Source of the DNA: Luteibacter sp.
GTDB taxonomy: Bacteria; Pseudomonadota; Gammaproteobacteria; Xanthomonadales; Rhodanobacteraceae
Assembly (NCBI RefSeq): GCF_036499525.1
Contig: NZ_DASYDO010000069.1
Location: forward strand, 56,790-120,789
Length of the DNA: 64,000 nucleotides
Direction of reading: 5' to 3'
Shown here one piece after another: positions 11,641 to 64,000 of this stretch. Under the pieces are notes generated by a model. That model was given only the letters and a program-made list of their open reading frames with translations. It did not search any database and was not told where the DNA came from. Positions within the stretch are counted from its first letter, which is position 1. Every line of letters begins with the position of its first letter. The position numbers were made by a program, and so were the translations under genes.

Positions 11641-11849
11641 GGGCGGATTATCGATGTGGGGAGGACGGAAATCCGTGAAAGCATAGCTCCCACCGGCGTC
11701 ATGTAGCCACACCGGCAGGCGTCGTTCGTTGGCGTTTTTTCACTGCGATGCCGCATGGCCGTCGGCGCGTCGTGAAATTGAGTCGGCACTAACGGATAGC
11801 AAGGATGTGTGCATCGCAGCAATTCGCGTGCGAATGTGTAAACGCCCCG

Positions 11850-11879
11850 TTGACGCTGGGCAGCCTGAGATTCTAAACT
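11850..11879 (+). promoter_or_regulatory. Candidate sigma70 promoter for the RND operon
   Basis: TTGACG-18 bp-TAAACT, about 200 bp upstream of the adaptor gene. Confidence 0.4.
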
Positions 11880-12083
11880 GGACGGTATACTTACGTGTTG
11901 AATCAAGCCACGATGGCGCTGGGTATCGGCAGCGTCACGGGCGTCCTGTAAGTGCACGCGAGAGGCCGAAACGCACGGGACGGGTGGCTAGGCACGCGGT
12001 AACCGTATCCACGCATGCGAGCGGCATCATCCCGGTGCGGTAGCGCGATCGAACAAGAAACCTGGAAAAGGAACGAAGTTCTC

Positions 12084-13310
12084 ATGAATCCCCTGCCCTT
12101 GCGCTCGACCCTGCTGGCCTTCGGCCTCGCCGCGGCGCTTGCCGCCTGCCATAAGCAGGAAGCTCCACAGCAGCCGCCTCCGCCGGAAGTCGGTGTCATC
12201 ACGGTCCAGCCCCAGGATGCGCCGCTCGTCCAGGACCAGGTCGGCCGCCTCTCCGCCTATCGCACGGCCGACGTGCGTGCCCGCGTGCCCGGCATCCTGC
12301 TGCATCGGCTGTACGGGGAAGGTACGGACGTGAAGGCGGGCCAGAAGCTGTTCCAGATCGATCCGCAGCCGCTCAAGGCCGAGCTGGATGCCCAGCTGGC
12401 CAACCTCGCCTCCACCCGCGCCACGGCCGTCAACGCCAAGTCGCAGGCGGATCGCGCGCGCGGCCTGATCGGCAAGAACTACGTGTCCCGCCAGGACCTC
12501 GACACCGCCGAGGCCAACGAGCGCACGGCGAACGCGGCGGTCAAGCAGGCCCAGGCGAATGCCGAATCGGCACGGATCAACCTCGGCTTCACCGACGTGG
12601 TTTCGCCGATCGACGGCCGCGCCGGCCAGCAACAGGTCACCGAAGGCGCGCTAGTGGGCCAGGGCGACACCACCCTGCTCACCCGCGTCGACCAGATCGA
12701 CAAGCTCTACGTGAACTTCAGCGTGTCGGTGTCTGACCTCGACGCGATGCGCCGCGCCGCCGCGGCCGGTGCGGCCACGCTGTCGCCGACGGACAAGGCC
12801 ACCGTGCGCATCCAGCTGCCGGACGGCACCGACTTCGGCGAGGAAGGCACGCTCGATTTCTCCTCGGCCACGGTGAATCCGCAGACCGGCACGGTGAACC
12901 TGCGCGCGTTGCTCGACAATCCGGGCGAGCGCCTGCTCCCCGGCCAGTTCGTGACCGTCAAGGCCACCCTGGGCGACCTGCACAACGTCTATCTTGTGCC
13001 GCAGGCCGCCGTGCTGCGCGACGCCAACGACGCCTACGTGATGGTCGTCGGCGAGGGCCACGCCAAGAACCCGCAGACCGGTGCCGACACGACCGTGCCA
13101 TCCGCCGCCATTCGCCGTCCGATCAAGGCCGATCGCCTCAGCGGCGCCAACTGGGTGGTCACGAGCGGCCTCAAGCCGGGTGACCAGATCATCGTCCAGG
13201 GCCTGCCGAAGGCGCGGGAGAACGCGCCCGTGAAGGCGTCCCCCGCCCAGGCCGCTCCTGCTGGCGCGGTGGCGGGTGGCCCCACGGCCGCCCCCGCCGG
13301 CAAGCAGTAA
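12084..13310 (+). CDS. RND efflux periplasmic adaptor (AcrA/MexA-like lipoprotein)
   Basis: Lipobox LAAC, ADVRARVPG, SPIDGRAG, GTVNLRA motifs; start set at MNPLP. Confidence 0.92.
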   Translation: MNPLPLRSTLLAFGLAAALAACHKQEAPQQPPPPEVGVITVQPQDAPLVQDQVGRLSAYRTADVRARVPGILLHRLYGEGTDVKAGQKLFQIDPQPLKAELDAQLANLASTRATAVNAKSQADRARGLIGKNYVSRQDLDTAEANERTANAAVKQAQANAESARINLGFTDVVSPIDGRAGQQQVTEGALVGQGDTTLLTRVDQIDKLYVNFSVSVSDLDAMRRAAAAGAATLSPTDKATVRIQLPDGTDFGEEGTLDFSSATVNPQTGTVNLRALLDNPGERLLPGQFVTVKATLGDLHNVYLVPQAAVLRDANDAYVMVVGEGHAKNPQTGADTTVPSAAIRRPIKADRLSGANWVVTSGLKPGDQIIVQGLPKARENAPVKASPAQAAPAGAVAGGPTAAPAGKQ

Positions 13311-13322
13311 GGGAGTTTCGTC

Positions 13323-16300: not shown

Positions 16301-16664
16301 GGCCTTCATCCTCGGCGTGTTCCCGCTGGCGATCTCCACCGGCGCGGGTGCGAACTCCCGGCATGCGATCGGTACCGGCGTCATCGGCGGCATGCTGTTC
16401 GCCACTTTCCTGGGCCTTCTGCTGATCCCGGTGTTCTACGTGTCGGTGCGCCGCATGCTGGGCGACAAGCTGGACGAGGTGTCGCAAACCATCCGCCAGG
16501 GCCATGGTCCCGACGATCGTCCGGACGGCGGCGGCCATGGGCCGCACGGCGGCGGCGATCCGCACGGCGGCAACCCGTCGACGAACGTCGGCCCCCACGC
16601 ACCGAACGTCGGCGACGTGCCAGCCTTCGACTCGGACCCGCGACGGGGTACCGACCGCCCGTAA
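13323..16664 (+). CDS. HAE1 RND efflux transporter (AcrB/MexB-like)
   Basis: MPSFFIDRPIFAWV, IGIVVDDAIVVIENVER, GLAAKNAILIVEFA, RLRPILMTS proton-relay motifs. Confidence 0.95.
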   Translation: MPSFFIDRPIFAWVVAILISLCGTIALLNMGIESYPNIAPPQVVVSATYPGASADTTEKTVTQVIEQQLTGIDHLLYFSSSSSSSGNAQVTLTFESGTDPDIAQVQVQNKVALATPRLPSEVTQQGVVVAKSNPDFLMFIALTSSNPAIDGDRLTDIVSSQVLDQIARIPGVGSTRQLGAEYAMRVWLNPDKLRGYGLSATDLRSALSTQNVQFAAGSIGTDPAVNGQGFSATVSAEGRFTTPEQFSEIILRANNDGTVVRLKDVARVELGPQSYGFNAQWNGTATGSFGVQLLPGANALDVANAVRAKMDELARSFPDGVTWFAPYDTTKFVTISIEEVVHTLVEAVILVFLVMLLFLQNFRATIIPTLVIPVALLGTFLGLSPLGFTVNQLTLFGMVLAIGIVVDDAIVVIENVERIMSEEGLSPKEATRKAMGQITGAVIAITVVLAAVFVPSALQPGASGIIYKQFALTIAVSMGFSAFLALSFTPALCATILRHEPAEKKKNIVYRKFNQLFDWVTHTYSGHVGSAVRHAPRWMVIFVLIAVVCGFLFVRLPTSFVPDEDQGYALAIVQLPPGSSLARTKKVMAEQRAILMKDASVDGMFQISGFSFVGQGENVGMTFIRLKDWGDRELTATQFIQQANGKMQAVRDATIFVVNLPTIRGLSQFGGIDMYLQARAGQSRPDLTAARNMLLGAAAQNSALVGVRPNTLEDAPLLQLHVDRTQAQTMGLSVSDIYTAIQLTLAPVYVNDFSYEGRVKRVMLQADAPYRMGTDAFSHIFTPSILAAASPDTSTDGSNVASTTSSVDNAMIPLSTVVDSKWMMAAPTLNRYNGYSAVEIVGNQAPGYSTGQAMKIVEGIVNDKLPKGFGYDWTGQSYQEILSGNSSTMLLALSVVIVFLCLAALYESWSIPVSVLLVVPLGILGTVVFSMLRGLPNDIYFKIGMITVIGLAAKNAILIVEFAVEQQQRGTTLRDGVVEAARLRLRPILMTSMAFILGVFPLAISTGAGANSRHAIGTGVIGGMLFATFLGLLLIPVFYVSVRRMLGDKLDEVSQTIRQGHGPDDRPDGGGHGPHGGGDPHGGNPSTNVGPHAPNVGDVPAFDSDPRRGTDRP

Positions 16665-16668
16665 CGAC

Positions 16669-16694
16669 AGAAGCCCGGCGAAAGCCGGGCTTCT
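16669..16694. terminator. Intrinsic terminator hairpin between convergent genes
   Basis: agaagcccggc-gaaa-gccgggcttct followed by a T-rich tail. Confidence 0.8.
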
Positions 16695-16766
16695 TCTTTG
16701 ACCCTGGGAAAGATTTCACGGCGCCTCATGGCACGGGCGGCCTGTGTCGCTGGGGAGCTTAGCGCA

Positions 16767-17927
<1,161 letters not shown>

Positions 17928-18040
17928 GGGGTGTTCCTCTCGCCGGCCTGACGGGCGGCAATCGTGGGGTGGGGTGGAAACAAGCCCACCATTTTAACGG
18001 CCTTTCGACGCCTTGCCGCCGTGCACTGCAACATCCCGGC

Positions 18041-18092
18041 TTGACGGGCGCACGCGCGGGCCGCATCCTGCGTATCTCTATATCGCGATATA
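18041..18092 (+). promoter_or_regulatory. Promoter plus palindromic operator upstream of the ArsR-methyltransferase/metH operon
   Basis: TTGACG (18041)-17 bp-CATCCT; perfect 14-bp palindrome tatatcgcgatata at 18079-18092. Confidence 0.6.
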
Positions 18093-18102
18093 AGGATGTT
18101 GG

Positions 18103-19047
18103 ATGGACCTGTCGACGGCCTCCACGGCGCTCCGGCTCCTGGCCGATCCCACCCGCGTCCGCCTCCTCGCCCTGCTCGATCGCGAGGAACTGACCGTGGC
18201 GGAACTGGCCGCCGTGCTGCACCTGGCCCAGCCGCGCGTGTCCACCCACCTTGCCAAACTCAAGGAAGCTGAGCTGGTGCGCGACCGCCGCGCGGGCGTA
18301 TCCGCCTATTATCGGGCCAACGCCGAAGCCGATCCCACGCTCGCCGCCCTGGTTGCCTCCCTGCGCGACACCTTGAGCGACGCCCTGCTTCGCGAGGACG
18401 CCGAGCGCCTGCCCGCCGTGCTCGCCCAGCGCGCACGCGCCGAAGGGTGGGCCGACACTGTCGCGGGCGACATGGAACGCCATTATTCGCCGGGCCGCAC
18501 CTGGGAAACCCTCGCCCGTTCGCTGCTCCAGCTGCTCGCCACCGGCGACGTGCTGGACATTGCTTCCGGCGACGGTGTCACCGCCGAGCTGCTTGCCCCG
18601 CATGCGCACTCCATCGTCTGCATCGACAGCTCGGACCGCGTGGTCGACGCGGCGCGCCAGCGCCTCTCCGGCTTTGCCAACGTCGAGGTCCGCACCGGTG
18701 ATATGCATGCGCTGGACCTTCGCGACCATCAGTTCGACCTTGTCCTCCTCCTGCACGCCCTCACCTACGCGACGGATCCGCAGAAAGTGTTCGGCGAAGT
18801 CGCGCGCGTGCTGAAACCCGGTGGCCGCGTGCTCGCGTCGACCCTCGGCGAACACGACCACCGCGCCGTCGTGGAGCCCTTCGACCACCGCAACCTCGGC
18901 TTCAGCTGCGCCGGCCTCACGGACATGGCCAGGAACGCCGGGCTCGACGTGGTGAGTTGCGATCGCCTGAGTCGCGAGCGCCGCGCTCCGCATTTCGAAG
19001 TCATCAGCCTGCTTGCACGCAAGCCTTTCGTAGAGGATGCCCCATGA
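18103..19047 (+). CDS. ArsR-family HTH fused to a SAM-dependent methyltransferase-like domain (SahR/SamR-type methionine regulator)
   Basis: [10 protein letters not shown]...[17 protein letters not shown]; [12 protein letters not shown] motif; overlaps the downstream metH gene. Confidence 0.85.
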
Positions 19048-20122
19048 GCCAACTTCCCTGGCTTCACCCTGATCGTGTCGCCCTCATCCAGAAGGGTCTC
19101 GCCGAGCGCATCATGATCCTCGACGGTGGCATGGGCACCATGCTCCAGGGCCACAGGCTCGACGAGTCCGGTTATCGCGGGGAGCGCTTCGCCGGCGGTC
19201 ACGACAGCACGCATGACCATGGCCACGACCATCCGGGCGAGTGCGACCTGAAAGGCAACAACGACCTGCTCCTGCTCAGCCAGCCGGAGATCATCCGCGG
19301 GGTGCACACCGCCTATCTGGAGGCCGGCGCGGACTTCGTCGAAACGAATACCTTCAACGCCACGCGCGTAAGCCAGGCGGATTACCACCTTGGGCACCTC
19401 GTGCCCGAACTGAACCGTGAAGGCGCCCGCATCGCGCGCGAAGCCTGCGATGCGATGACCGCACGCACACCCGACAGGCCGCGTTTCGTCATCGGCGTGC
19501 TCGGTCCGACCAGCCGCACGGCGTCGATCTCGCCCGACGTGAACGACCCGGGCTTTCGCAATGTCTCCTTCGAGGAACTGAAGACAAACTATATCGAGTC
19601 CGCCCGCGCCCTCATCGAAGGCGGCGCCGACACGATCATGGTCGAAACCATCTTCGACACGCTTAACGCGAAGGCCGCGCTGTTCGCCTTGAGCGAGCTT
19701 TTCCACGAGCTTGGCGCGCGCGTGCCGGTGATGATCTCGGGCACGATCACCGATCGCTCCGGACGCACGCTCTCGGGACAGACCGCCGAGGCATTCTTCT
19801 ACTCGGTCGAACACATCCAGCCACTGTCCGTGGGTTTGAATTGCGCGCTCGGCGCCGAAGACCTGCGCCCGCACGTGCAGATGCTGGCGCGCATCGCGGG
19901 CAGCGCCGTTAGCACACACCCGAATGCGGGCCTGCCCAACGCCTTCGGCGAGTACGACGAGACGCCGGAAAGCATGGCCGAGACCATTCGCGGCTTCGCG
20001 GCCGATGGCCTCATCAATATCGTGGGCGGGTGTTGTGGCACCACGCCCGCCCATATCGCGGCGATCGCCGCCGCCGTGGCGCCGTACGCGCCGCGCACTT
20101 ACAGGGACACCGCGCAAGCCGC

Positions 20123-20126
<4 letters not shown>
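19044..20126 (+). CDS. metH: Split cobalamin-dependent methionine synthase, homocysteine-binding part
   Basis: [46 protein letters not shown]; start set at MSQLP. Confidence 0.93.
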
Positions 20127-22822
<2,696 letters not shown>

Positions 22823-22824
22823 CT

Positions 22825-22931
22825 GTAGGAGCGCGCCCTGCGCGCGACATGTTTTGAGGCCGAAACCGGGAACTGGCGCGCCAGCTTGCCGACCGGGGCG
22901 AAAACATGTCGCGCGCAGAGCGCGCTCCTAC
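22825..22931. repeat. REP doublet (REPIN), GTAG type
   Basis: gtaggagcgcgccctgcgcgcgaca ... tgtcgcgcgcagagcgcgctcctac. Confidence 0.92.
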
Positions 22932-51162: not shown

Positions 51163-51387
51163 GGAACATCCTTCGCGGTGAGTTGTAACGATCGGGCGCG
51201 TACGGCCCTGCGGGGCAAATAGTAGTCCTCTGTGTGTTAGTGCGAAACCATATCGTCCAAGACGATATCCTCGACAACGTGACGCCATGCCGCCCCGAAG
51301 AGCTGGGCCGAAGGGAGATCATGTCGCGGCCTGGGAGCAGCCCGAAGTCTTCGTCAGCGACTCCAGGGCTTCGTTCAAGACGATGCG

Positions 51388-51870
51388 CTACGCGTCGCTT
51401 TCCTTACCGCTGTAAGCGGTGATCGGCTTTTCGGGCGTTGGCCGCGCCATGGCGCGGCCGAAGATGCCGATCGCGCGGGCCAGCGGCGTCAAGGTCTGCC
51501 ATAGCTCGTCGTCGTTGAGCAGGCGGTAGATGCCACGTACACCGGGCGCCGCATCGTCCGGTTCGTGCCGCCCGGCTTCGAGTACCTGCGCGGCTTCGCG
51601 AATGGCCTCCGCGAATTTGTAGACGGCTCCCGGTGGCACCTTGCCAAGCACCATCGCAAGCGCCGAGAGGTTCTGCATGACGTTACGCGCGCCGTCGGTT
51701 TCCAGCCCTTTCACCACGATGGCGGCGATACCCTGGTTAGCTGCGACGATGTCGTTCGCCAGGCGCAGCACGCCGTGTTCGTGCAGGGTTTCCACGAGCC
51801 TGTCCAGTTCCTCGCGCGCTGTGGCATGCGTGCGGACGGGCGTGGGTTTGAAATTGAGGGGCTCGGCCAT
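51388..51870 (-). CDS. DUF1641-family protein (YjgD/ForE-like partner of the molybdoenzyme)
   Basis: Helical 160 aa protein; VETLHEHGVL and GIYRLLNDDEL pattern; start overlaps the molybdoenzyme stop (TGATG). Confidence 0.75.
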   Translation of the reverse strand: MAEPLNFKPTPVRTHATAREELDRLVETLHEHGVLRLANDIVAANQGIAAIVVKGLETDGARNVMQNLSALAMVLGKVPPGAVYKFAEAIREAAQVLEAGRHEPDDAAPGVRGIYRLLNDDELWQTLTPLARAIGIFGRAMARPTPEKPITAYSGKESDA

Positions 51871-54842
51871 CACAGCGTCTCCGGATGCTCGATGTGCCGG
51901 GGCGGTTGTTCGTATTCCGGACGTTCCCACTTCGCCCGCGCATCCGGGCCGCCGTTCGGCGTGCGCCGGCCGTAGCGGAAATTGCGATAGGGCAAGGCAG
52001 GCTCCCCTTTGGGGCGGGGCAGCTTCTCGATGCGCACGGCAAGCTCCTTGTAGCCGGGCGTGTTGACGTCGGGATCGTGGTGCTCGCCGGTGAGCGCGTT
52101 CACACCCGGCTTCGAGTGATGGATGGGCAAGAACAACGTATTGCCCTGCACCCGATCGGTAACCACGGCGCGCACTTCCACGCTGGCGCGTCGCGACGTC
52201 ACCTTCAACCAGGTACCGTCCTCGATACCGCGCTCGCGCGCGAGATCCGTACCGATTTCCACGAACCAGTCCGGCGACAGATGGTCGATGCGACCGCCGC
52301 GTCCCGTCTGGTTCCTGGACTGGAAGTGTTCAAGCAACCGGCCGTTGTCGAGCATGAGGTCGTAGGTTTCGTCGGCTTCCTCACCTGGCGCCTTCCATTC
52401 CAGGGGGTACAGCTTCGCCTTGCCGTCGGGGAACTTGAACTTCTCCGTGTAGAGAAGTGGCGTGTCCTTGCCGTCGGCCGTGACGGGCCACTGCAGGGAC
52501 TTCCAACCCTCGAGCCGCTCGTAGCTCACCCCGGCGAACATCTCGGCGATGCCGGCGCATTCGCGCATGATGTCCGCCGGCCCCGTATAGCCCCAGTCAT
52601 GACCAAGACGCTTTGCCACCTCGTTGAGGATCCACCAGTCCGGCCGGCTGTCACCCAACGGCGGCATCACCTGGTGGAAGCGCTGGATGCGTCGTTCGGT
52701 GTTGGTGAACGTACCGTCCTTCTCCACGCTGGGGCATGCGGGCAGCACCACGTCGGCGAATTGCGCCGTCCGGCTCAGGAACATGTCCTGCACCACGAAG
52801 AAGTCCATGCCGGAGAAAGCTTTCTCCACATTCGAGGTATCCGCGTCGGAAATGGCAGTTTCCTCGCCGATGACCCACATCGCCTTGACCTTGCCCTTCC
52901 CCGCTTCCACGACCATGGCGAAATTGTCGAGTCCGGGTTCGTTCGAGAGGCGCTCCACGGGGACGCCCCAGGCTTTCGCCCATTTCGCCCGCACGGCTTC
53001 GTCGGTCACCTTCTCGTAACCGGGATAGATGTCCTTCAGGCAGCCGAAATCGCTGGCGCCCTGCACGTTGTTGTGGCCGCGCATGGGGTAGCCGCCCGTA
53101 CCGGGCCGCCCATAATTGCCCGTGACCAGGAGCAGGTTCGACAAGGCCGTGCTCGTGTCCGACCCATGCGTATGCTGGGTGATGCCCATGGCCCAGAGCA
53201 GGCAGACGCTTCCGGCACCCGCGATCATCCGGGCCGCTTCCTCGAGCTGCGCGCGCGGTACCCCCGTCATCGCTTCCGCGAACTCCATCGTGAAGGGCGC
53301 CAGCGAGCGCCGGTACTCATCCAGCCCGTTCACGCGCTGCGCCAGGAAGTCCATGTCGGCCAGCCCTTCGTCCAGGATGTAACGCGCCGTCGCGCTGGCC
53401 CATACGAGGTCCGTGCTCGGCGTCAGCTGAAGAAACACATTCGCGCGATCCGCCATTTCATGACGACGCGGATCGACCACCAGCAATTTCTGCCCACGTA
53501 GCTTGTGCGCCCGTTTGATCCGCGTGGCGATCACCGGATGACATTCGGCCGTGTTGGAGCCCACGAGCACCACCAGTTCGGCCTTCTCGATATCCTTGAT
53601 CGATCCGGCATCGCCACCGTAACCGACGGTACGGAACAGGCCCATGGTCGCGGGGTTCTGGCAGTAACGCGACGAGTTGTCCACGCTGTTGGTGCCGAAG
53701 ATCGAACGCGCGATCTTCTGGGTGAGATAGGCCTCTTCGTTGCTGGCCTTGCTCGAACCGATGAAGCCCATCGCCTTGGGGCCGTGCTGCGCGTGCACTT
53801 CGCGGAGGCGGTTCGCCACGAGGTCCAGCGCCTCGTCCCAGCTTGCCTCGCGGAAGGCGCCGTTATCCCGGATCAGGGGTCGGGTGAGACGGTCCGGGCT
53901 GTTGACGAAATCCCAGCCGAACTTGCCTTTCACGCAGGTAGAGATGCCATTCGCAGGGGCATCGATGACCGGCTGCACCTTCAGGATATGCCGGTCACGC
54001 GTGACCATCTCGAAGGCACAACCCACGCCGCAATACGTGCACACAGTCTTCGTGCGGCGGACCTCGGCCTGCCGCATCGTCGCGTCGATCTCCGAAAGCG
54101 CCGTGACCGGCCGCGCGCCAGTGGTGTTCTCCAGCGCCTTCACCAAGTCGATCAGCGGACGTTTCACCCGCTCTTCCATGGCGGTGAACGGTCCTGCATC
54201 CGGTTGCATGGTCTTTTCCAGCAACGCGTTGCACGGACAGACGGTGACGCAATGACCGCAGGACACGCAGCTGGACTGATCGATGGGGCGGCCGCCGTCC
54301 CAGAGCACGCGCGGATGCTCCGCCGTGTAATCGATGCTGAGGGTTTCGTTGACCTCGACATTCTGGCATGCCTCGACGCAGCGCCCGCAGAGGATGCACT
54401 GGTCGGGATCGTACGTGTAGAACGGATTGCTCGTGTCCTTCGCGTAAGGCTTGCGTACGAAGGGATAGCGCTGGATCGGCATGTCCATCGCGGCGACGGT
54501 GTTGTGCAAGGTACAGTCGCCGAGGTTATGTTCGCAGACGGTGCAATACAACTCGTGCTTGGCAAGCAGGCGATCCATGCCTTCCTCACGTGCTGCCGCT
54601 GCCTTCTCGCCGCGCGTGTCGACATGACTTCCGGGCTGTGCGACGTGATCGCAACTGCGGACCAGCTCGCCATCCACCTCGACCCAGCACGTGTCGCACG
54701 TCTTCAGTGGACCGAGTGCCTCGTTGTAGCAGACGCGCGGCACCTCGATGCCATGGCGGATGAACAGGTCAACCAGTCGTTCGCCTTCCTGGACAACGCG
54801 CGGAAGACCGTCGATGACGATGGTGGGGGCAATGACGGACAT
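51870..54842 (-). CDS. FdhF/YjgC(ForC)-like molybdopterin formate dehydrogenase alpha subunit with NuoG-like Fe-S N-terminus
   Basis: 2Fe-2S C..TCDTC..C; HELYCTVC...C; two ferredoxin motifs (CILCGRCVEAC, CVSCGHCVTVCP); CTYCGVGC; CVKGKFG; SSRYCQ; RGHNNVQG; no Tat signal; start set at MSVIA. Confidence 0.88.
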   Translation of the reverse strand: MSVIAPTIVIDGLPRVVQEGERLVDLFIRHGIEVPRVCYNEALGPLKTCDTCWVEVDGELVRSCDHVAQPGSHVDTRGEKAAAAREEGMDRLLAKHELYCTVCEHNLGDCTLHNTVAAMDMPIQRYPFVRKPYAKDTSNPFYTYDPDQCILCGRCVEACQNVEVNETLSIDYTAEHPRVLWDGGRPIDQSSCVSCGHCVTVCPCNALLEKTMQPDAGPFTAMEERVKRPLIDLVKALENTTGARPVTALSEIDATMRQAEVRRTKTVCTYCGVGCAFEMVTRDRHILKVQPVIDAPANGISTCVKGKFGWDFVNSPDRLTRPLIRDNGAFREASWDEALDLVANRLREVHAQHGPKAMGFIGSSKASNEEAYLTQKIARSIFGTNSVDNSSRYCQNPATMGLFRTVGYGGDAGSIKDIEKAELVVLVGSNTAECHPVIATRIKRAHKLRGQKLLVVDPRRHEMADRANVFLQLTPSTDLVWASATARYILDEGLADMDFLAQRVNGLDEYRRSLAPFTMEFAEAMTGVPRAQLEEAARMIAGAGSVCLLWAMGITQHTHGSDTSTALSNLLLVTGNYGRPGTGGYPMRGHNNVQGASDFGCLKDIYPGYEKVTDEAVRAKWAKAWGVPVERLSNEPGLDNFAMVVEAGKGKVKAMWVIGEETAISDADTSNVEKAFSGMDFFVVQDMFLSRTAQFADVVLPACPSVEKDGTFTNTERRIQRFHQVMPPLGDSRPDWWILNEVAKRLGHDWGYTGPADIMRECAGIAEMFAGVSYERLEGWKSLQWPVTADGKDTPLLYTEKFKFPDGKAKLYPLEWKAPGEEADETYDLMLDNGRLLEHFQSRNQTGRGGRIDHLSPDWFVEIGTDLARERGIEDGTWLKVTSRRASVEVRAVVTDRVQGNTLFLPIHHSKPGVNALTGEHHDPDVNTPGYKELAVRIEKLPRPKGEPALPYRNFRYGRRTPNGGPDARAKWERPEYEQPPRHIEHPETL

Positions 54843-54960
54843 AGGGTCAGCGTGAGCGCGAATCCGGCCACGTTCGGTGTACGCCGCGCGTTTCCCGGCT
54901 TCACGAATCCCGCACGGGCCCACGAATAGCGTGAACGCGTTAGGCCGGTACGAGAGGGAG

Positions 54961-55611
54961 ATGGCACAGATTTTCCACCCGCGCTCCGGCCTCTACGCCA
55001 AGCTGGCGATGCTGGGCATGCTGGTGGCCGCCGTCACCGCCGTCTTCGTCTGGCGCGGCGTCACCGCGGAGCCGGACAGGGAAAACGAGGCCGTGGAACA
55101 GCCGGTACCTTTCAGCCACCAGCACCATGTAGGCGAGGTCGGCATCGACTGCCGCTACTGCCATGCGGGCGTGGAGACCGATGCATTCGCCGGCATACCG
55201 CCGATATCGACGTGCATGACATGTCATTCGCAACTTTTTATGGATCAGCCGCCGCTGGCACCTTTGATTGAAAGCTGGCGCACCGGCGTACCCCTGCACT
55301 GGAACCGGGTCAACGACCTTCCCGACTTCGTGTACTTCGACCATTCCATTCATGTGGCAAAAGGTGTTGGCTGCGTTTCCTGCCACGGACGGGTGGACCG
55401 CATGCCGTTGATGCGCCGCGTCGCCTCGCTGTCGATGAAGTGGTGCCTGGAGTGCCATCGCCATCCGGAACGCTTCGTGCGCCCACGGGACCAGGCGTTC
55501 GCCATGGACGACCGCCATCCCGGCGCCGACGATGCGCTTGGCATACACCTCGTCGACGCGTATCGGATCGACCGGCGTCGCCTGACGGATTGTTCGATAT
55601 GCCACCGGTGA
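54961..55611 (+). CDS. actA: Alternative complex III pentaheme cytochrome c subunit
   Basis: Five CxxCH (CRYCH, CMTCH, CVSCH, CLECH, CSICH); N-terminal TM; PVPFSHQHH, LPDFVYFDHSIH. Confidence 0.88.
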   Translation: MAQIFHPRSGLYAKLAMLGMLVAAVTAVFVWRGVTAEPDRENEAVEQPVPFSHQHHVGEVGIDCRYCHAGVETDAFAGIPPISTCMTCHSQLFMDQPPLAPLIESWRTGVPLHWNRVNDLPDFVYFDHSIHVAKGVGCVSCHGRVDRMPLMRRVASLSMKWCLECHRHPERFVRPRDQAFAMDDRHPGADDALGIHLVDAYRIDRRRLTDCSICHR

Positions 55612-58481
55612 GCGCCCTCGATGCATTGCGTGAAGCGTTGCCCCCGCCGGGTTCGCCGCGGTTCTGGCGGGCACTGGACGAGCTCGCCGACGATCCTGCG
55701 CGCCGTGCTCTGGTGGCCGCCGCGTGGCCTCCGCTGGCCGACCTAGAACCCGCCCTCGATCGACGCGGGTTCCTGCGCCTGCTGGGCGCCTCCCTGGCAT
55801 TCGCCGGTCTCGCCGGCTGTTCGGGGCCACCGCCCGGGCGCATCGTGCCGCAGGTCGGTCGCGACGGCCGCTCCGTCCCCCACGCTGCCCGCTATGCGAC
55901 GGCGCTCGCCACCGGTGGCGACGTGGTAGGTGTCTTGGTCGAGCTGCGGGATGGACGCCCGGTCAAGCTGGAGGGCAATCCCCGCCACCCGGCCAGCTAC
56001 GGCGGCAGCGACCCGCGCATGCAGGCAGCGGTACTCGACCTGTGGGATCCGGCCCGCTCAGACGCGCCGCGCCGGCAAGGTGCTCCATCGAGCTGGGCTG
56101 CCTTCGAAGGCGAAGCGGCGGCGTGGCGCCGACGCTTCGGTGAACGTGGCGACGGCCTGCGCATCCTTTCCGGAACCATCGCTTCGCCAACGCTGGCGCG
56201 TCAACGCGACGCGTTACTCGCACGCTATCCGGGCGCTCGCTGGCATGTGCACGACCCTGCGGGCGGGCGCCCGGGCCGGGTGTGGCCGGACATGTCCAGG
56301 GCACGCACGATCGTCGCACTCGATGCAGACCCCTTGGGTGCGTTCCCGGGGCACGTCCGTCATGCGCGAGACTTCGCTGAGGCGCGCCGGACAGCCGATA
56401 CGATGTCCCGCCTCTACGCGATCGAGCCGACGCCGTCGCTCACCGGACGCAATGCGGACCACCTGTGGCCAGCGGCGGCGACCGAGATACCGAAAATCGC
56501 CGCGGCGCTGGCCTCGGCCCTTGGAGTGGCCGTCGATGTTCCCGGGCTGGACGCGTTCTCCCACGGACGGATCGCGGCCATGGCCGGGGATCTGCGCGCG
56601 AATGCGGGTGCGTCGCTGGTACTCGCCGGGCCTTATCAGCCTGCAGTGGTTCACGACCTCGTACGCGCGATGAACCGGCTTTTGGGTAACGACAAGACGG
56701 TGCTGCGCGAACTCGCGACGCAGAGCGATGACGAACCGCTCGAGGACCTCGTCGCCGACATGCACGCAGGCCATGTGGACACGCTGGTCCTGCTGGAAAC
56801 GAACCCGCTGTATACGGCACCGGTTTTCGCGGAAGCACTGCGCCACGTGGCACACACAGCACACCTCGGCCGTTATCGCGACGAAACGGCGGAGGCCGTG
56901 CAATGGCATTTGCCCGCGTTACATCCCTTTGAAACCTGGTCGGACCTGCTCACGCTGGATGGCATCGCGAGCATCGTGCAGCCGGTGCTTGCACCGTTGT
57001 CGGATGCGCGCTCGATGCATGACGTGATGGACCTGTTGCTGGGTGGCGTGCCGAACGATGCGCGCGAGCGTGTGCGCTCGACGTGGCCGCAACTGGACGA
57101 GGAGGCGTGGACATCGGCGCTGCGCGATGGTGTTTTCGAATCCACGCCGCCCCCCGTAGGGGCGCGCCCTGCGCACGACAGCCTATCGCGAAACCCCACA
57201 AGGCCCGATGCCTCACCGCAAGAAGCTGTCGCGCGCAGGGCGCGCTCCTACATGCCCAACGCATTGGAACTGCTGTTCCGCCCCGACGAACACCTGTGGG
57301 ACGGTCGCCATGCGCATAACGCCTGGTTGCAGGAACTACCGCGCCCCGTGACATCGCTCACCTGGGGCAACGCCGCCTGGATCTCACCCGCGCTCGCCGC
57401 GGAGCGCGACCTGCGTGACGGTGATGCCGTTCGCCTGGAGGCGAACGGACGACACGTCGAGGCACCGGTGCTCGTCGTGCCGGGACAGGCGACGAACAGC
57501 GTCACCGTGACGCTCGGCTATGGACGGCGCAGCGGGATCGCCGAAGGACTCGGTTATGACGCCTACACTCTGCGCGACAGCGACGACACCTGGCACATCG
57601 GCGGGCTGGTGCTGACGAAGCTGGATCGCCGCGACATGCTTGCATCCACCCAGGCCCAACAAGACATGGGCCGTCGCGACATCGTCCGCACGGGAACGCC
57701 TGCGCATCCACCCAAAGGCGGAAGTACCGTACCGTCCAGTCTTTACCCCGACGTGGCGCACGGCGAGTACCGCTGGGCCATGAGCATCGATTTAAATGCC
57801 TGTATCGGCTGCAACGCTTGTACGATCGCCTGCCAGGCCGAAAACAATATTCCCGTGGTCGGCAAGGAAGAAGTCGCCCGCGGGCGGCGCATGCACTGGA
57901 TACGCGTGGACCGCTATCACGAAGGGTCGCCCGCCGCGCCGCTTACCTATCACCAGCCGGTGCCCTGCATGCACTGCGAGCATGCACCGTGCGAGGTCGT
58001 CTGCCCCGTCGAGGCGACCGTGCACGACAGTGAAGGCCTCAACCTGCAGGTCTACAACCGCTGCGTCGGCACGCGCTTCTGCTCGAACAACTGTCCGTAC
58101 AAGGTGCGCCGGTTCAACTTCCTGCAGTACGCGGACCTCGCCAGCGAAAGCCTGAAGGCCATGCGCAATCCGGACGTCACCGTCCGCTCCCGCGGCGTCA
58201 TGGAGAAATGCACGTACTGCGTGCAGCGTATCGAGCGCGCCCATATCGCCGCCGACCGCGATAGCCGGCGCATCGCCGAAAACGAGGTGACGACAGCCTG
58301 CCAGGACGCCTGCCCCACCCGGGCGATCGTCTTCGGCGACCTGGGCGACGAGGCCAGCGCGGTCGCAAAGGCGAACCGGTCGACGCGTCGTTACGTCCTG
58401 CTCGAGGAATTGAACACACGGCCGCGCACGACTTACCTGGGCGCCTTGCGCAATCCGAATCCGGCGTGGGGGGAGTCGTGA
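55608..58481 (+). CDS. actB: Alternative complex III subunit B (molybdoenzyme-like domain fused to Fe-S domain)
   Basis: FWRALDEL; Tat motif RRGFLRL with LAGC lipobox; WLQELP; [43 protein letters not shown]; GTG start inferred. Confidence 0.87.
57156..57251. repeat. REP doublet inserted in frame within actB
   Basis: gtaggggcgcgccctgcgcacgaca ... tgtcgcgcgcagggcgcgctcctac; 96 bp, no stop in the actB frame. Confidence 0.9.
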
Positions 58482-59821
58482 CCGACCGCGAGCCCGCCCA
58501 TTTCGCCACACCCGCCGAAGTCACTGACATCGTGACCGGCCTCGTACTGGTGCATCGCGCCGGCCTCCGATGGAAGCTGGCCTTCGGCGCGGCGGCGCTG
58601 CTCACTGCCCTGCTGGTCGTCGCCATCGTCGTACTGCTGGTACGCGGCGTGGGCATCTGGGGGGTGAGCATGCCCGTGGCCTGGGGTTTCGCCATCGCCA
58701 ACTATGTCTGGTGGATCGGCATCGGCATGGCGGGTACCTTCATCTCCGCCGCGCTCTACCTCACGCGGCAGGGCTGGCGCTCCGCCCTGAACCGGTTCGC
58801 CGAGGCGATGACCGTGTTTGCCCTGGCCGTCTCGTCACTGTTCCCCATCTTCCATCTCGGCCGGCCGTGGTTTTCCTACTGGCTGGCCCCCTACCCCGAC
58901 CGCATGGGCCTGTGGCCGCAATGGCGCAGCGCGCTCGTCTGGGATTTCTTCGCGATCGGTGCGTACGTGATCGTGTCGGTGATCTATTTCTATGTCGGAC
59001 TCATCCCGGATCTGGCGGCGGTGCGCGATCGCGCGAGCTCGCGCGGACAACAGGTGTTTTATGGCCTGCTGGCGATCGGCTGGCGTGGCGAGGCGCGCCA
59101 ATGGGAACGGCATGCGACCCTGGTGAAGATCCTCGCGGGCCTGGCCGTGCCGCTCGTGTTCTCGGTGCACAGCATGGTGGCGCTGGATTTCTCCGAAGGG
59201 CTCCTGCCGGGCTGGCATTCGACGATTTTCCCGCCGTTCTTCGTGGCCGGTGCACTGTTCTCCGGCGCGGCGATGGTCATCGTGCTGGCCGTGCCGCTGC
59301 GTAAAGCTTACGCGCTGGAGGAATTCATCACGGACGAACACCTCGACAAGCTCGCGAAAATGATGCTCGCCGTAGGCTGGGTGGTGACCTATGGTTATGC
59401 CGCCGAAATCTTCACCGCATATGTCGGCGGCGATCCGTACGACACCGCCCTGCAACGCCATCGCATGCAAGGCGCGTACGCATGGCTGTTCTGGGCCACC
59501 ATCGCTTGCAACAGCCTTTCCATCCAGGCCCTGTGGTGGCCTCGGGTACGCACCAGCCCCCTCGCGCTCGTCGTCATCGCCCTGCTGGTGCTCACGGGCA
59601 TGTGGATGGAACGCTTCATGCTCATCGTCACCAGCCTGTACCGCGATTTCCTGCCGTCGAGCTGGGGCATGTTCCACCCCACGGTATGGGATGGCGCCTT
59701 CCTGCTGGGGTCGATCGGCCTGTTCGCGCTGCTCTTCCTCATTTTCGTTCGCCTCGTTCCCGTCCTGTCGATCGCCGAACTTCGCCGGCACGCGGCCGAA
59801 CGCGTGGATACCCGGCCATGA
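58478..59821 (+). CDS. actC: Alternative complex III subunit C (NrfD/polysulfide reductase family, quinol-binding)
   Basis: NYVWWIGIGMAGT, FHLGRPW, WDFFAI, PLVFSVHS, WHSTIFPPFFVAGA. Confidence 0.9.
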   Translation: MTDREPAHFATPAEVTDIVTGLVLVHRAGLRWKLAFGAAALLTALLVVAIVVLLVRGVGIWGVSMPVAWGFAIANYVWWIGIGMAGTFISAALYLTRQGWRSALNRFAEAMTVFALAVSSLFPIFHLGRPWFSYWLAPYPDRMGLWPQWRSALVWDFFAIGAYVIVSVIYFYVGLIPDLAAVRDRASSRGQQVFYGLLAIGWRGEARQWERHATLVKILAGLAVPLVFSVHSMVALDFSEGLLPGWHSTIFPPFFVAGALFSGAAMVIVLAVPLRKAYALEEFITDEHLDKLAKMMLAVGWVVTYGYAAEIFTAYVGGDPYDTALQRHRMQGAYAWLFWATIACNSLSIQALWWPRVRTSPLALVVIALLVLTGMWMERFMLIVTSLYRDFLPSSWGMFHPTVWDGAFLLGSIGLFALLFLIFVRLVPVLSIAELRRHAAERVDTRP

Positions 59822-60345
59822 GCGTGCATGGCCGCCTTCTCCAGTTGCACGACGCGCACGAACTGGCCTCCGCGGTCGACGCGCTGCATGCGCTCGGCTA
59901 CACCCGGCTCGAAGCTTTTTCGCCCTATGCGGTGGACGGACTGATGGAAAAGCTGGGGTCGCCGCCGAAACGCATTCCGCCCGCGATGCTCACGGGCGGC
60001 CTGATCGGTGGTATCGGCATGCTCTGGCTGCAATACCACGCCGCCGCGGTGGACTATCCGCTCAACGTCGGCGGGCGTCCTGCGGCGAGCTGGCCGGCCT
60101 TCATGCCATCGGCCGTGGAAGTCGTCATCCTGCTCGCCGTCGTCGCCGGCTTCGTGGCGTTCCTGGTGGGCAGCCGCCTGCCCACTCTCTACCGGCCGGA
60201 GTTCAACGTGGCGTGGTTCGAGGAAGCGAGCCGCGACGGATTCCTGCTGCTCATCCGCGCGGACGACCCGAGGTGGAATGATCATCAGGTGGCCGAAGAC
60301 GTTGCCGCGCTGGAGCCGTTACGTCATGCGGACGTTCCGTCATGA
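59818..60345 (+). CDS. actD: Alternative complex III subunit D (DUF3341)
   Basis: EAFSPYAVDGL, YPLNVGGRP, two TM helices, position in operon. Confidence 0.87.
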   Translation: MSVHGRLLQLHDAHELASAVDALHALGYTRLEAFSPYAVDGLMEKLGSPPKRIPPAMLTGGLIGGIGMLWLQYHAAAVDYPLNVGGRPAASWPAFMPSAVEVVILLAVVAGFVAFLVGSRLPTLYRPEFNVAWFEEASRDGFLLLIRADDPRWNDHQVAEDVAALEPLRHADVPS

Positions 60346-60893
60346 GGCGCGTAGCCATCCTGCTGATCGCCCTCCTGCCGGTGACCGGCTGCGAACGCGG
60401 CATGCACCAGATGTACGACCAGCCGCGTTACGAGCGCGGTGGCGAGGCCCCGCTGTTCGCCGATGGTGTCGCTTCCCGCATACCGCCTCGCGGCACGGTA
60501 CCGACCTCCGACCCGGAAGCGATGCCGGCGCCACCGGCCGTCACTGAAGGCTTGCTCGAGCGGGGACGCGATCGCTACACCATCTATTGCACGCCCTGCC
60601 ACGGTGTGGGCGGCGACGGTGACGGCATGGTGGTGCGGCGCGGTTTTCCGGGACCACCGAGCTACCACGAGCAACGGCTGCGCGACGCCGATGACCGGCA
60701 CCTTTACGATGTCATCACCCGTGGTTGGGGTGTCATGTATCCCTATGCGGATCGCATTGCGCCGGCTGACCGGCAAGCCATCGTCGCTTATATCCGTGCC
60801 CTGCAGTTCAGCCGCCACGCACCCGTGGACCGCTTGGAACCGGAGGACCTCTCACGGCTCCGCGACCTGCCCAGCGAGGGAGCCCGGCAATGA
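60342..60893 (+). CDS. actE: Alternative complex III monoheme cytochrome c lipoprotein
   Basis: Lipobox VTGC, MYDQPRY, CTPCH, GWGVMYPY, IVAYIRALQ. Confidence 0.87.
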   Translation: MRRVAILLIALLPVTGCERGMHQMYDQPRYERGGEAPLFADGVASRIPPRGTVPTSDPEAMPAPPAVTEGLLERGRDRYTIYCTPCHGVGGDGDGMVVRRGFPGPPSYHEQRLRDADDRHLYDVITRGWGVMYPYADRIAPADRQAIVAYIRALQFSRHAPVDRLEPEDLSRLRDLPSEGARQ

Positions 60894-61702
60894 TCCTGCA
60901 CGCATGGCTTGCGGCATGGTTGTTGTTCACCGGCGCGAGCGTCGGCGCCATTGCCTGGCAGGCCATCCACCGGCTCACCGGCGGCGCATGGGGCGGCGTC
61001 CTGGCAACGCGCTGGAGAATGCTGCGCATGTTACTGCCCCTGGCCGCGCTTGCGAGCGCGCCCATGCTGATCGCCGCGCCACACCTTTTCCCATGGATCC
61101 ACCATCCGGTGGAGGAAGCGCGGCGCTGGTACCTCAGTTATCCGTTCCTCGCCTGGCGGACCGCCGGCTGCTTCGTCGCGTGGGCGATCGCGTGGCGGCT
61201 GGCGACGCGTGCGCCCGCCGCGAGCCTGATCGTCTGGCTGTTCGCCTGCGGTGTGTTCGCGAACGACTGGATCGTTTCGCTCTCGCCCGAGTGGCGATCC
61301 TCAGCGATAGGACTGGTGCTCGCGCTCGGCCAGTTGCTGGTGGCCCTGTCCACGGCCGTACTCTTGCGAACACCCCGGGAATCCTCGGTCGTGCCGCCCA
61401 TCTTCCGCGGCGACCAGGCCTCGTTGCTCTTCGCCGCCTGCCTCGGCTGGGCCTATCTCGCCGGCATCGATTACCTCACCGCCTGGATGGCCGACCTGCC
61501 GTACGAAACCGCTTGGTACCTGCCCCGCACGCAGGGCTCTTGGGCCGCGCTGGCAATCGCAGCGATCGTGTTCCAACTCGTCGTGCCTTTCGTGCTGCTT
61601 CTCTCGCGCAAGGCGAAGGCCAGGGTCCATGTGTTGCGGGCAGCCGCCGCCTCTGTGTTGCTGGGCCAGGCCTGCCATGTCGCATGGATGGTGATGCCGT
61701 GA
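60890..61702 (+). CDS. actF: ActF-like membrane protein (short, 270 aa)
   Basis: LTGGAWG, DWIVSLSPEWRSS, WMADLPYE..WY, VPFVLLL; operon position. Confidence 0.72.
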   Translation: MILHAWLAAWLLFTGASVGAIAWQAIHRLTGGAWGGVLATRWRMLRMLLPLAALASAPMLIAAPHLFPWIHHPVEEARRWYLSYPFLAWRTAGCFVAWAIAWRLATRAPAASLIVWLFACGVFANDWIVSLSPEWRSSAIGLVLALGQLLVALSTAVLLRTPRESSVVPPIFRGDQASLLFAACLGWAYLAGIDYLTAWMADLPYETAWYLPRTQGSWAALAIAAIVFQLVVPFVLLLSRKAKARVHVLRAAAASVLLGQACHVAWMVMP

Positions 61703-62010
61703 CGCATGAACCGCAGGGCCTCGCCACTCGCCGGCTCGCGTCCCTGGCAGCGCTGCTCGCGGGGTCGACCATGGTCGTGCTGGTGGCCTGTTTCTTCCTT
61801 TGGCGCGGCTGGGTCACCGCCCCTGTGCCGTCGCCCCGCGCCGGCGAACCGAAACTCCAGCCGGAACCGCGCCGCGACATGGAGATGTTCCGCCGCCGGC
61901 AGCGCAACGCGAACGAGTGGGGCTGGGTCGATCGCGAACGCGGCGTCGCGCGGATTCCGGTGGAACGCGCGATGCGGCTGATGGCGAAGGAAGGAGATCG
62001 AAAGCCATGA
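61699..62010 (+). CDS. ActG-like small membrane protein
   Basis: One TM; WGWVDRERGVARIPVERAM motif; GTG start overlaps the actF stop. Confidence 0.65.
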   Translation: MTHEPQGLATRRLASLAALLAGSTMVVLVACFFLWRGWVTAPVPSPRAGEPKLQPEPRRDMEMFRRRQRNANEWGWVDRERGVARIPVERAMRLMAKEGDRKP

Positions 62011-62786
62011 TACGGCTCCTCGTATCCGCCTTCTTGCTGCTCTTGCTCGCGCCCGCCTTCGCAGCCGTTCCGCCGCCGCGCGACCTCGACCGGCGTGCCG
62101 GCTTCGATCAACATATCGGTGCGCGGGTGCCCATGGATGTGCCGCTTACCGACGCGGATGGCCATGCAAAAACGCTCGCGACGATCGCGGACGGCAAACC
62201 CCTGCTGCTCGCCTTCGGCTATTACCGCTGTCCCAACCTCTGCGACCTCACGTTGCGCGGCATCGCCTCAGCCGTAGCGCGGGTACCGCTGGGGGTGGGC
62301 GCCGATTACCAAGTGGCCTTCGTGAGCATCGCGCCTAACGAAACCGCACTCGATGCGCGGGAGGCGCGCGACCTGGTCGCCCGCATGGAACCCCAGGGCC
62401 AGGCGATACGCTGGACCTGGGCAACGGCGGCGCCACCGTCCGTCGCCACGCTTACCCATACTGTGGGTTTCCGTTACTTCAGGGACCCGCGCGACGGCCA
62501 GTACGTGCACCCCGCCGGTTTCGTCGTCGTGGCGCCGGACGGGCGCGTGGCACAGTACTTCTTCGGCGTGGACTACGATGCGCACGCCTTGCGCCTCGCG
62601 CTGGTCGACGCCTCACACGGGCGGCTGGGCACCGTCATCGATCGGCTCGTCCTGCTCTGCTGCGGGTACGACCCTGCCACCGGTCGCTACAGCCTGCTGG
62701 TGTCGCGCCTCATGATGGCGCTGGGCTGTGCCTTCCTCGTCGTCATGGCCGCCGGCGCGCTGTGGCTGCGAAGGAGGACACCATGA
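62007..62786 (+). CDS. SCO1/SenC copper chaperone
   Basis: YYRCPNLC (CxxxC), YVHPAG, C-terminal LLCCGYDP TM region. Confidence 0.85.
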   Translation: MIRLLVSAFLLLLLAPAFAAVPPPRDLDRRAGFDQHIGARVPMDVPLTDADGHAKTLATIADGKPLLLAFGYYRCPNLCDLTLRGIASAVARVPLGVGADYQVAFVSIAPNETALDAREARDLVARMEPQGQAIRWTWATAAPPSVATLTHTVGFRYFRDPRDGQYVHPAGFVVVAPDGRVAQYFFGVDYDAHALRLALVDASHGRLGTVIDRLVLLCCGYDPATGRYSLLVSRLMMALGCAFLVVMAAGALWLRRRTP

Positions 62787-63721
62787 CCTTCCTGCCTGAG
62801 GCATCCAGCTTCGCCGGTCGGGTCGATGGCCTGTTCTATGCGATGCTCGGCCTGTCGACGGTCGTGGTGCTGGGCGTGTTCACCACGATGCTGGTGTTCG
62901 CCATTCGTTTCCGGCGCGGCCGCCATGTGGACCGCAGCGGCGAATCGCACCGGGAACTCGGCATCGAGATGGTCTGGACGCTCGTGCCGTTCGCGATGTT
63001 CCTCGCCATCTTCGTCTGGAGCATCCGCCTCTGGATCGTCATGCGAACGCCGCCGGCAAACGCATCGACGATCCACGTGGTCGGTAAGCAGTGGATGTGG
63101 GAATTCGAACATCCCGACGGCCAGCGCGAGATCGACACGCTGCACGTGGCAACGGGCCAGCCCATTCGCCTGGTGATGATTTCGCAGGACGTGATCCACG
63201 ATGTGTCCATTCCGGCCTTCCGGGTGAAACAGGACGTGCTGCCCGGCCGCTATACGCAGCTGTGGTTCACGCCCACGCGCACGGGCACGTACAACCTCTT
63301 CTGCGCGGAGTATTGCGGTACCGATCATTCCCGGATGGGCGGGGTCGTCGTCGTCCAGACGCCGGCGGGCCACGCACGCTGGCTGGCCAGCCATGCCAGT
63401 GGATCGCTCGCCGACCAGGGCCGGATGCTGTTTACCCGCTTCGGGTGCGCGGGTTGCCACGACGCTGGTTCCTCCGTGCATGCCCCCCGTCTGGACGGCC
63501 TCTATGGAAGCACGGTGCCACTGGCCGACGGCCGCCAGGTGCTAGCCGACGAGCGCTACCTGCACGACGCGATCACCTTGCCCGGCAGCGAGGTTGCGGC
63601 GGGCTATGCGCCGCTGATGCCCAGTTACAAGGACCGGATCGACGAAGCAGACATTCTCGCACTGGTCGCCTACCTCAAGGTCCGTGGCACGGACAGGGAG
63701 ATACCCCATGCAGCCCGCTGA
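62783..63721 (+). CDS. coxB: Cytochrome c oxidase subunit II with fused cytochrome c (caa3 type)
   Basis: [25 protein letters not shown] CuA motif; C-terminal CAGCH. Confidence 0.92.
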
Positions 63722-64000
63722 ACACGTCCCGCCCAGCTACCTCACGGACGGCAACACGCTCCGGTCCTGGCTGGCAACGCACGATCACAAGCGAATCGCG
63801 ATCCTTTACGCAGTCTCGATCACGTTCTTTTTCTTCCTGGGCGGCATCGCCGCGGCGCTCATGCGCCTCGAACTGGCCACGCCGGCGGGCGACGTGATGA
63901 GCGCGGAAACCTACAACAAGACTTTCACCTTCCATGGCGTGGTGATGGTGTGGTTCTTCCTCATTCCCTCCATTCCCGCCACGTTGGGCAATTTCCTCCT
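63708..64000 (+). CDS. coxA: Cytochrome c oxidase subunit I, N-terminal part (runs off the window)
   Basis: MQPAEH...DHKRIAILY...MRLEL...[15 protein letters not shown]...GNFL. Confidence 0.88.

Follow-up and report, generated by a model that had tools for sequence, protein, structure and literature searches.

Organisation of the forCE and act-cox region

The last part (positions 51388-64000) of a 64,000-nt stretch of DNA from Luteibacter sp., hereafter the window, carries two groups of genes that point away from each other. The minus strand holds the gene pair forCE, predicted to encode a formate dehydrogenase of the Bacillus subtilis ForCE type, and the plus strand holds an operon of act and cox genes, which encode an alternative complex III (ACIII) and a caa3-type cytochrome c oxidase. 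The source is a Luteibacter-like member of the Rhodanobacteraceae whose assembly was obtained from a soil metagenome; one sequencing run matched the sequence, and it consists of soil-metagenome DNA. Gene calls combined the listing of open reading frames (ORFs), a frame check based on the G+C content of third codon positions (GC3) and a reading of the gene junctions. The G+C content of the region is 63-68%.

The coordinates of all features are given in Table 1. forC and forE have one base in common, in the ATGA start/stop junction at 51870, and most junctions of the plus-strand operon are 4-bp ATGA or GTGA overlaps. An earlier reading of this DNA, made from the letters alone (the sequence-only reading), had placed forC and the act operon 118 bp apart. 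This spacing is exact, and the gene list and coordinates of that reading were also right, apart from corrections concerning the DUF1641 model, ActG and ActF that are described below. The contig (C69) continues beyond the window with the remainder of coxA (540 aa in total), coxC (214 aa) and a gene for a 97-aa COX4_pro-type subunit IV (coxD). Past the subunit IV gene, at C69 123030-123613, homology to relatives ends and a stretch of lower G+C content extends to the end of the contig; the assembly may have been interrupted here by a mobile element.

Table 1. Features of the forCE and act-cox region, in window coordinates.
Feature	Position	Strand	Description
forE	51388-51870	-	160 aa; cofactor-less partner subunit (DUF1641/HMP family), by profile match and synteny
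forC	51870-54842	-	990-aa catalytic subunit, by domains, motifs and YjgC alignment
Divergent intergenic region	54843-54960		exactly 118 bp, sequence read
actA	54961-55611	+	pentahaem cytochrome c with N-terminal transmembrane (TM) anchor
actB	55608-58481	+	fused B1 (molybdopterin-like) and B2 (4Fe-4S) subunit
actC	58466 or 58478 to 59821	+	NrfD/PsrC-type quinol-binding membrane subunit
actD	59818-60345	+	Pfam PF11821 ActD, 1.5e-41
actE	60342-60893	+	monohaem cytochrome c; Pfam Cytochrome_CBB3/Cytochrom_C
actF	60890-61702	+	short form, 270 aa, ~6 TM helices
103-aa single-TM ORF	61699-62010	+	GC3 0.81, GTGA overlap
sco	62007-62786	+	SCO1/SenC-type copper chaperone for CuA assembly; Pfam SCO1-SenC 8.7e-8
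coxB	62783-63721	+	subunit II, CuA site and fused C-terminal cytochrome c
coxA	63708-64000, continues beyond window	+	subunit I; Pfam COX1

A predicted formate:quinone oxidoreductase of the ForCE type

Residues 6-980 of ForC align to B. subtilis YjgC/ForC1 (8rqz_C) with 1278 bits, compared to 572-580 bits for FdsA chains, and the protein scores above the cut-off of the Fdh-alpha model TIGR01591 (828 bits vs 666). Its Pfam domains come in the order Fer2_4, NADH-G_4Fe-4S_3, two Fer4, Molybdop_Fe4S4, Molybdopterin and Molydop_binding. The N-terminal part comprises one [2Fe-2S] and four [4Fe-4S] domains and is followed by the domain for Mo-bisPGD, a cofactor of molybdenum with two pyranopterin guanine dinucleotide units. 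The active site carries the motifs SRYCQNPA, with Cys-Gln at the Mo ligand, and PMRGHNNVQG, with Arg-Gly-His. A CQ…RGH signature defines the ForC subfamily (Arias-Cartin et al. 2021, PMC8808070), whereas the FdsA-type active site reads CH and not CQ (PMC8808070). By its sequence, ForC qualifies as a true orthologue of YjgC/ForC1 from B. subtilis. No signal peptide was found in ForC, which should therefore face the cytoplasm. An NAD-dependent formate dehydrogenase of the FdsABG type was considered and ruled out by its score, less than half that of YjgC, and by the CQ motif. ForC shares the NuoG-like N-terminal Fe-S extension of the FdsABG alpha subunit (Rhodobacter capsulatus, 6TGA; Cupriavidus necator), but the Luteibacter active site has CQ in place of CH and no fdsB, fdsG or fdsD gene adjoins forC.

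The Pfam DUF1641 model (PF07849) gave no match to ForE at E<=10, nor to any other protein of the genome, and membership of ForE in this family therefore rests on a profile and on synteny. The family profile, made from 18 homologues, had a single match in the whole PDB, B. subtilis ForE1 (8rqz_A, E=2.6e-6, positions 20-142), and the single ForE sequence matched ForE1 weakly (E=0.024). At all loci with a detected forE homologue, this gene lies directly downstream of forC, and the homologues carry the NCBI/JGI names DUF1641/YjgD. The AF2 model of the monomer, built from 18 sequences, is all-helical with low confidence (pLDDT 56, pTM 0.25). The sequence-only reading had described the larger gene as a NuoG/FdhF-type molybdoenzyme akin to ForC; the YjgC score, the CQ and RGH motifs and the ForE profile agree with a ForC that has a ForE partner. 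Its DUF1641 label for the small gene can be kept on the strength of the homologue names and the match to ForE1, although the Pfam model of that name misses the protein.

Compared with B. subtilis ForCE1 (YjgC/YjgD; PDB 8RQZ/8RR0/9GZQ), the Luteibacter pair has the same forC-forE order, a full-length ForC alignment, the same series of Fe-S domains, the CQ…RGH signature and a ForE partner recognisable by profile. It differs in its host, a Gram-negative gammaproteobacterium without MenD in which the expected acceptor is ubiquinone and not menaquinone, in its divergent connection to an ACIII-caa3 operon, of which the consulted papers on ForCE and HMP proteins make no mention, and in the strong divergence of ForE, which escapes the Pfam DUF1641 model. 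The HMP scaffold complexes (Huc with HucM; Ndh-Ncp/YjlC filaments) are alike in concept, as a helical tube protein there joins a soluble oxidoreductase to the membrane quinone; however, the partner enzyme is another one, and the PDB searches with ForE returned no HucM or YjlC chain. Taken together, forCE is predicted to encode a peripheral formate:quinone oxidoreductase that faces the cytoplasm and belongs to the ForCE type of B. subtilis.

An ACIII followed by a caa3 oxidase

ActA has five CXXCH motifs and one TM helix and gave full-length matches to ActA of the solved ACIII structures (8k9e_A, 8e-64). ActB and ActC matched their counterparts in the PDB at 1.9e-232 and 3.6e-140, respectively; ActB also carries the Tat-variant signal TIGR04519 with the Tat motif RRGFLRL, and ActC belongs to Pfam NrfD. 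The actC start is probably the GTG at 58478. ActE has one CXXCH and is probably a lipoprotein. In the ActB alignment, residues ~516-548 (57156-57251) form a hypervariable linker between B1 and B2, which in the window is ~8-9 residues longer than in the related genomes G131 and G140 and shorter than in G142.

Residues 111-270 of ActF align to chain positions 181-345 of ActF in the solved structures (6lod_F, 2e-18). The Luteibacter protein has 270 aa vs 411-464 aa in those structures, and its ~6 TM helices fall short of the 10 of a full ActC paralogue; ActF of Pistricoccus aurantiacus has 364 aa. As the 270-aa length is kept in all Luteibacter loci, we regard ActF as a short variant and not as a pseudogene. 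An in-frame ORF at 61706-61981 was tried as the C-terminus of ActF and rejected; its translation is Arg-rich junk, and the real gene at this place is the 103-aa ORF, in another frame. This ORF, between actF and sco, is kept in all loci of the genus (39-71% identity) and ends in the C-terminal motif WGWVDRERGVARIPVERAMRLMAKEG. Pfam, NCBIfam and PDB searches gave no match for it. The earlier call of ActG is putative: a single-TM ORF occupies the position expected for ActG, an accessory subunit that not all ACIIIs have, but no homology of this ORF to any family could be detected.

The SCO protein carries a CPNLC motif. CoxB lies above the cut-off of the CoxB equivalog TIGR02866 and contains COX2 and Cytochrom_C domains, a CuA motif and CAGCH. 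The combination of a CuA motif with a fused C-terminal cytochrome c makes the oxidase one of the caa3 type, and subunits I, II, III and IV are all present on the contig. ACIII gene clusters are often trailed by oxidase genes, and electrons are transferred directly from ACIII to caa3 (PMC5928083). The plus-strand operon thus encodes a complete ACIII (ActABCDEF) together with a copper chaperone of its own and a cytochrome c oxidase of the caa3 type. The same succession had been read from the letters alone, and it is matched by ActA, ActB, ActC and ActF through structure chains, by ActD through its Pfam model, by ActE through its one haem and by the caa3-type CoxB.

The solved ACIIIs (Rhodothermus marinus 6F0K; Chloroflexus 8K9E; Roseiflexus 6LOD; Flavobacterium 6BTM) share with the Luteibacter complex the subunits ActA-F in canonical order, a five-haem ActA, a one-haem ActE, a Tat-exported B1B2 fusion as ActB and oxidase genes directly downstream. 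Unlike them, Luteibacter has an ActF of only 270 aa and an insertion of the 103-aa ORF and the SCO gene between actF and coxB. Moreover, its host keeps a cytochrome bc1 complex and is presumably a ubiquinone organism, and its operon is paired with forCE.

Other quinol routes, maturation genes and quinone

The genome encodes bc1 (petABC, contig C27), a second, aa3-type oxidase (C25) and a cyo-type quinol oxidase (C28). That the host has bc1, as had been supposed from its lineage, makes ACIII-caa3 an accessory branch. FdhD and the molybdenum cofactor proteins MobA and MoeA are encoded outside the window: at C68:40827-46053 fdhD comes after a gene for a 783-aa molybdoenzyme of the YdeP/FdhF family, and the opposite strand carries mobA and moeA just downstream. 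With these genes present elsewhere in the genome, ForC can be matured. The FdhD of C68, the sole one in the genome, presumably also matures ForC. No MenD score above the cut-off was found in the genome, and hence the quinone is presumably ubiquinone. We take the quinone of Luteibacter to be ubiquinone-8.

The two operons form one relocatable block in Luteibacter

Among 38 sampled species of the genus, ForC is present in six and ActC in twelve. ActC lies ~3.6 kb from ForC, on the opposite strand, in all six ForC-bearing genomes, and the gene order is identical. The adjacency is thus not a peculiarity of one strain; the sequence-only reading had named a restriction to this strain as a finding that would refute its proposal. 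The named isolate Luteibacter sp. CQ10 (L020) has the block as well, and ForE homologues are also present in L. yeojuensis and Luteibacter sp. Lutesp34.

The extent of the block was defined by a blastn comparison of a close relative (G140) and a distant one (G122). The homologous DNA spans 14.8 kb and is bounded exactly by the ends of forE and coxD; none was found in ~12 kb on either side. In the clade of the window the block lies ~18 kb from ileS and adjoins folA. Its distance from ileS is 740-810 kb in G122 and G138, where it adjoins a gene for an IclR-type regulator. Finally, in G147, which has neither unit, the flanking gene is found ~280 bp from folA and marks an empty site. The edges of the block, its two chromosomal contexts and the empty site indicate that the two operons behave as one discrete, relocatable unit. 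Gain, relocation and loss have, within Luteibacter, mostly affected both operons together. A concatenated Act/Cox tree does not decide whether the ForCE-linked ACIIIs form one clade, since it fails to resolve the deep branches and has a very long Pistricoccus outgroup.

Beside the block, the relatives at loci L001, L017, L018 and L003 carry a gene for a secreted epoxide hydrolase-like protein (~470 aa) and a cupin gene (~190 aa) between forE and folA. Both are missing from the genome of the window, where 99 bp remain (51289-51387).

An accessory respiratory branch as the favoured interpretation

The interpretation that we favour, with a probability of about 0.6, is that the 14.8-kb block is a co-inherited accessory respiratory branch whose two halves are coupled, non-exclusively, through the shared quinone pool. 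ForC, as a ForC4E4 complex, would oxidise cytoplasmic formate, and the electrons would travel along its five Fe-S clusters until they reach a quinone in the tube formed by ForE, here ubiquinone-8 as MenD is absent. The quinol would then join the membrane pool and be oxidised by ACIII at ActC. From there the electrons would move by way of the ActA and ActE haems straight to the cytochrome c that is fused to CoxB, and then to O2. Because the link would be a common quinone pool, bc1/aa3 and cyo would compete for the quinol made by ForCE. Joint inheritance of an accessory, self-sufficient branch is the most likely reason for the clustering, possibly along with coordinated expression driven by promoters that lie back-to-back; the clustering is no sign of an obligate partnership of ForCE and ACIII. 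The sequence-only reading had proposed an accessory chain from formate through quinone, ACIII and caa3 to O2. Both enzyme systems and the accessory status stand, but a specific route through ACIII does not follow from the present data. Electron flow from formate to O2 by way of the quinone pool would be the expected biochemistry.

Several observations weigh against this interpretation, and the first group concerns the distribution of the pairing. ForC was found in 3 of 121 genomes of a family sample, the window's own included, and in 7 of 400 genomes of a class sample. ACIII does not lie near ForC in any of the eight ForC genomes that were examined from these samples (two from elsewhere in the family, six from elsewhere in the class): in six ACIII is absent, and in two it lies at a distance of megabases or on a different contig. 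A wider survey covered 80 species-level ForC loci with 10-kb flanks, together with 29 further ForC loci from Halomonadaceae. No ACIII-caa3 is found nearby in 78 of the 80, the two positive loci being those of Luteibacter sp. CQ10 and of Pistricoccus aurantiacus (Halomonadaceae), and none of the 29 has ACIII near ForC. In total, ~110 ForC loci of other lineages lack ACIII within 8-10 kb, with Pistricoccus as the sole exception. The commonest neighbour of ForC is fdhD, at ~26 of 115 loci. By a rough estimate, chance would place ForC next to ACIII in ~0.1 events over ~110 loci, and one was found; at that expectation, a single recurrence is suggestive but not compelling. The number of ForC loci with any haem-copper oxidase nearby is close to chance. 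The synteny search proposed in the sequence-only reading thus finds the pairing in the ForC-bearing species of Luteibacter and once more in Pistricoccus, but it does not support a general linkage.

In Pistricoccus (L077, NZ_JBHUIC010000003.1, 10001-22859), forC-forE-fdhD stand tail-to-tail with coxD-coxC-coxA-coxB-sco-…-actF-E-D-C. The proteins are distant from those of the window, with 57% identity for ForC and 48% for ActC. In two other Halomonadaceae (G553 and G595; loci L132, 8516-15973, and L134), forCE is divergent from a cyoABCD ubiquinol oxidase operon at a distance of ~390 bp. At these two loci, genes for a CYP152 peroxygenase and an Fnr-family regulator lie beyond cyoABCD. The Pantoea plasmids pC3_1 and pAPP145_2 (L027, L036) also carry forCE, which fits a patchy, horizontal spread of ForCE in Proteobacteria.

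Within the genus, six of the twelve ACIII-bearing species have ACIII-caa3 without ForCE and with varied upstream neighbours. Moreover, in G091 an internal deletion has left only the first 73 codons of forC, now joined to the final 29 of forE (L003, G091:C20 9888-10186), while the actA…coxA operon is intact. This natural forCE deletion beside an intact ACIII-caa3 makes G091 a ready-made control strain. As to the quinone, all characterised ForCE and ACIII enzymes use menaquinone to our knowledge, and we infer the use of ubiquinone here.

The control region adds further points of this kind. In an alignment of 11 act upstream regions, a block TTCAC-N4-C-N-CGCAC…(A/C)TAG is found 30-65 bp before actA in all 11 loci. 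Loci that lack forCE have it too; it is a part of the act operon. Farther from actA by ~10 bp is a second block, CGGCCACGT-N3-GTRTA-N3-CGCGC, found only where forCE or a remnant of it is present; it presumably corresponds to the forC promoter region. With the two blocks so close, divergent promoters would sit back-to-back within a spacer of 118-150 bp. The intergenic region shows no sigma-70 consensus, and the full forC-side and act-side motifs occur nowhere else in the genome, where shortened, degenerate versions gave a few matches. Neither the alignment nor a promoter scan nor the genome-wide motif search revealed a shared regulator site or regulon. The proposal that the two units share a divergent control region gains no support from these results: the act-proximal motif is independent of forCE, and no motif common to the two operons was identified. 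Shared control of forCE and act is, if it exists, something that we infer from the layout of the two blocks. An inverted repeat TTCACG…CGTGAA in the act promoter of the window was considered and rejected, as it is not kept in the other loci.

Alternative explanations

Most of these points would equally be expected if forCE and act-cox were fortuitous neighbours, that is, independent units which landed together at a variable place in the genome of an ancestral Luteibacter and then hitchhiked, with no common regulation or preferential coupling and with the electrons of ForCE leaving mainly through bc1/aa3 or cyo. This is the most serious of the alternatives, although we consider it unlikely. It accommodates an adjacency that is missing from nearly all other ForC lineages, an ACIII-caa3 that stands alone beside varied neighbours in half of the ACIII-bearing species, the loss of forCE without loss of act-cox in G091, a promoter-proximal act motif that is independent of forCE and the presence of other quinol-oxidising routes in the genome. 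However, the edges of the block match the two operons exactly in two chromosomal contexts, which is unexpected for mere neighbours. The forC-side intergenic motif is kept across species whose ForC is 81-93% identical to that of the window, and ForCE has become linked independently to a quinol-oxidising oxidase branch in Pistricoccus and in the two Halomonadaceae described above.

A bolder version of the branch, in which the block would be a horizontally exchangeable, private formate-to-O2 island for ubiquinone hosts, co-regulated by overlapping promoters and with ForE channelling quinol to ACIII, appears quite improbable to us. Least probable of all is that ForCE serves mainly in formate detoxification, as a redox valve or in CO2 reduction, with the oxidase branch acting as a low-yield O2-consuming sink or protecting the molybdoenzyme: ForCE is indeed peripheral and has no proton-translocating subunit, its physiological role is not settled in the literature on it, and no formate transporter or formate-producing enzyme adjoins the block, whose flanks carry folA or genes for an epoxide hydrolase, for a cupin protein or for a regulator of the IclR type, but electron transfer from formate to ubiquinone is strongly exergonic, caa3 is by its family a proton pump and CO2 reduction from ubiquinol is thermodynamically implausible, and a self-contained chain with its own SCO chaperone resembles a respiratory investment.

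Significance

ForC-like sequences in Proteobacteria were already noted in 2021 (PMC8808070). A literature search, which was not exhaustive, found no paper that links ForCE with ACIII and none on ACIII in Luteibacter or Rhodanobacteraceae. The components and the arrangement of ACIII with oxidase genes are already known; what is new is that the two operons make up a discrete block, that this block has been gained and lost patchily in the genus and that its host retains bc1 and presumably uses ubiquinone. Should the link between the two operons turn out to be historical only, there would still be a map of ForCE neighbourhoods over ~115 loci, in which fdhD is the usual neighbour and an oxidase an occasional one. 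Should the block prove to be a private formate-to-O2 island, it would be the first case of a ForCE linked to ubiquinone and of an ACIII that has an electron donor of its own.

The co-inherited branch bears on the role of ForCE and on why some bacteria keep ACIII beside bc1. Luteibacter is cultivable and genetically ordinary, and it offers natural controls in relatives with ACIII only, in the forCE-deleted relative and in relatives with neither unit. It would therefore be a clean system in which to study the use of ubiquinone by ForCE, ACIII-caa3 as the preferred outlet of a donor and the selective value of an accessory complex III.

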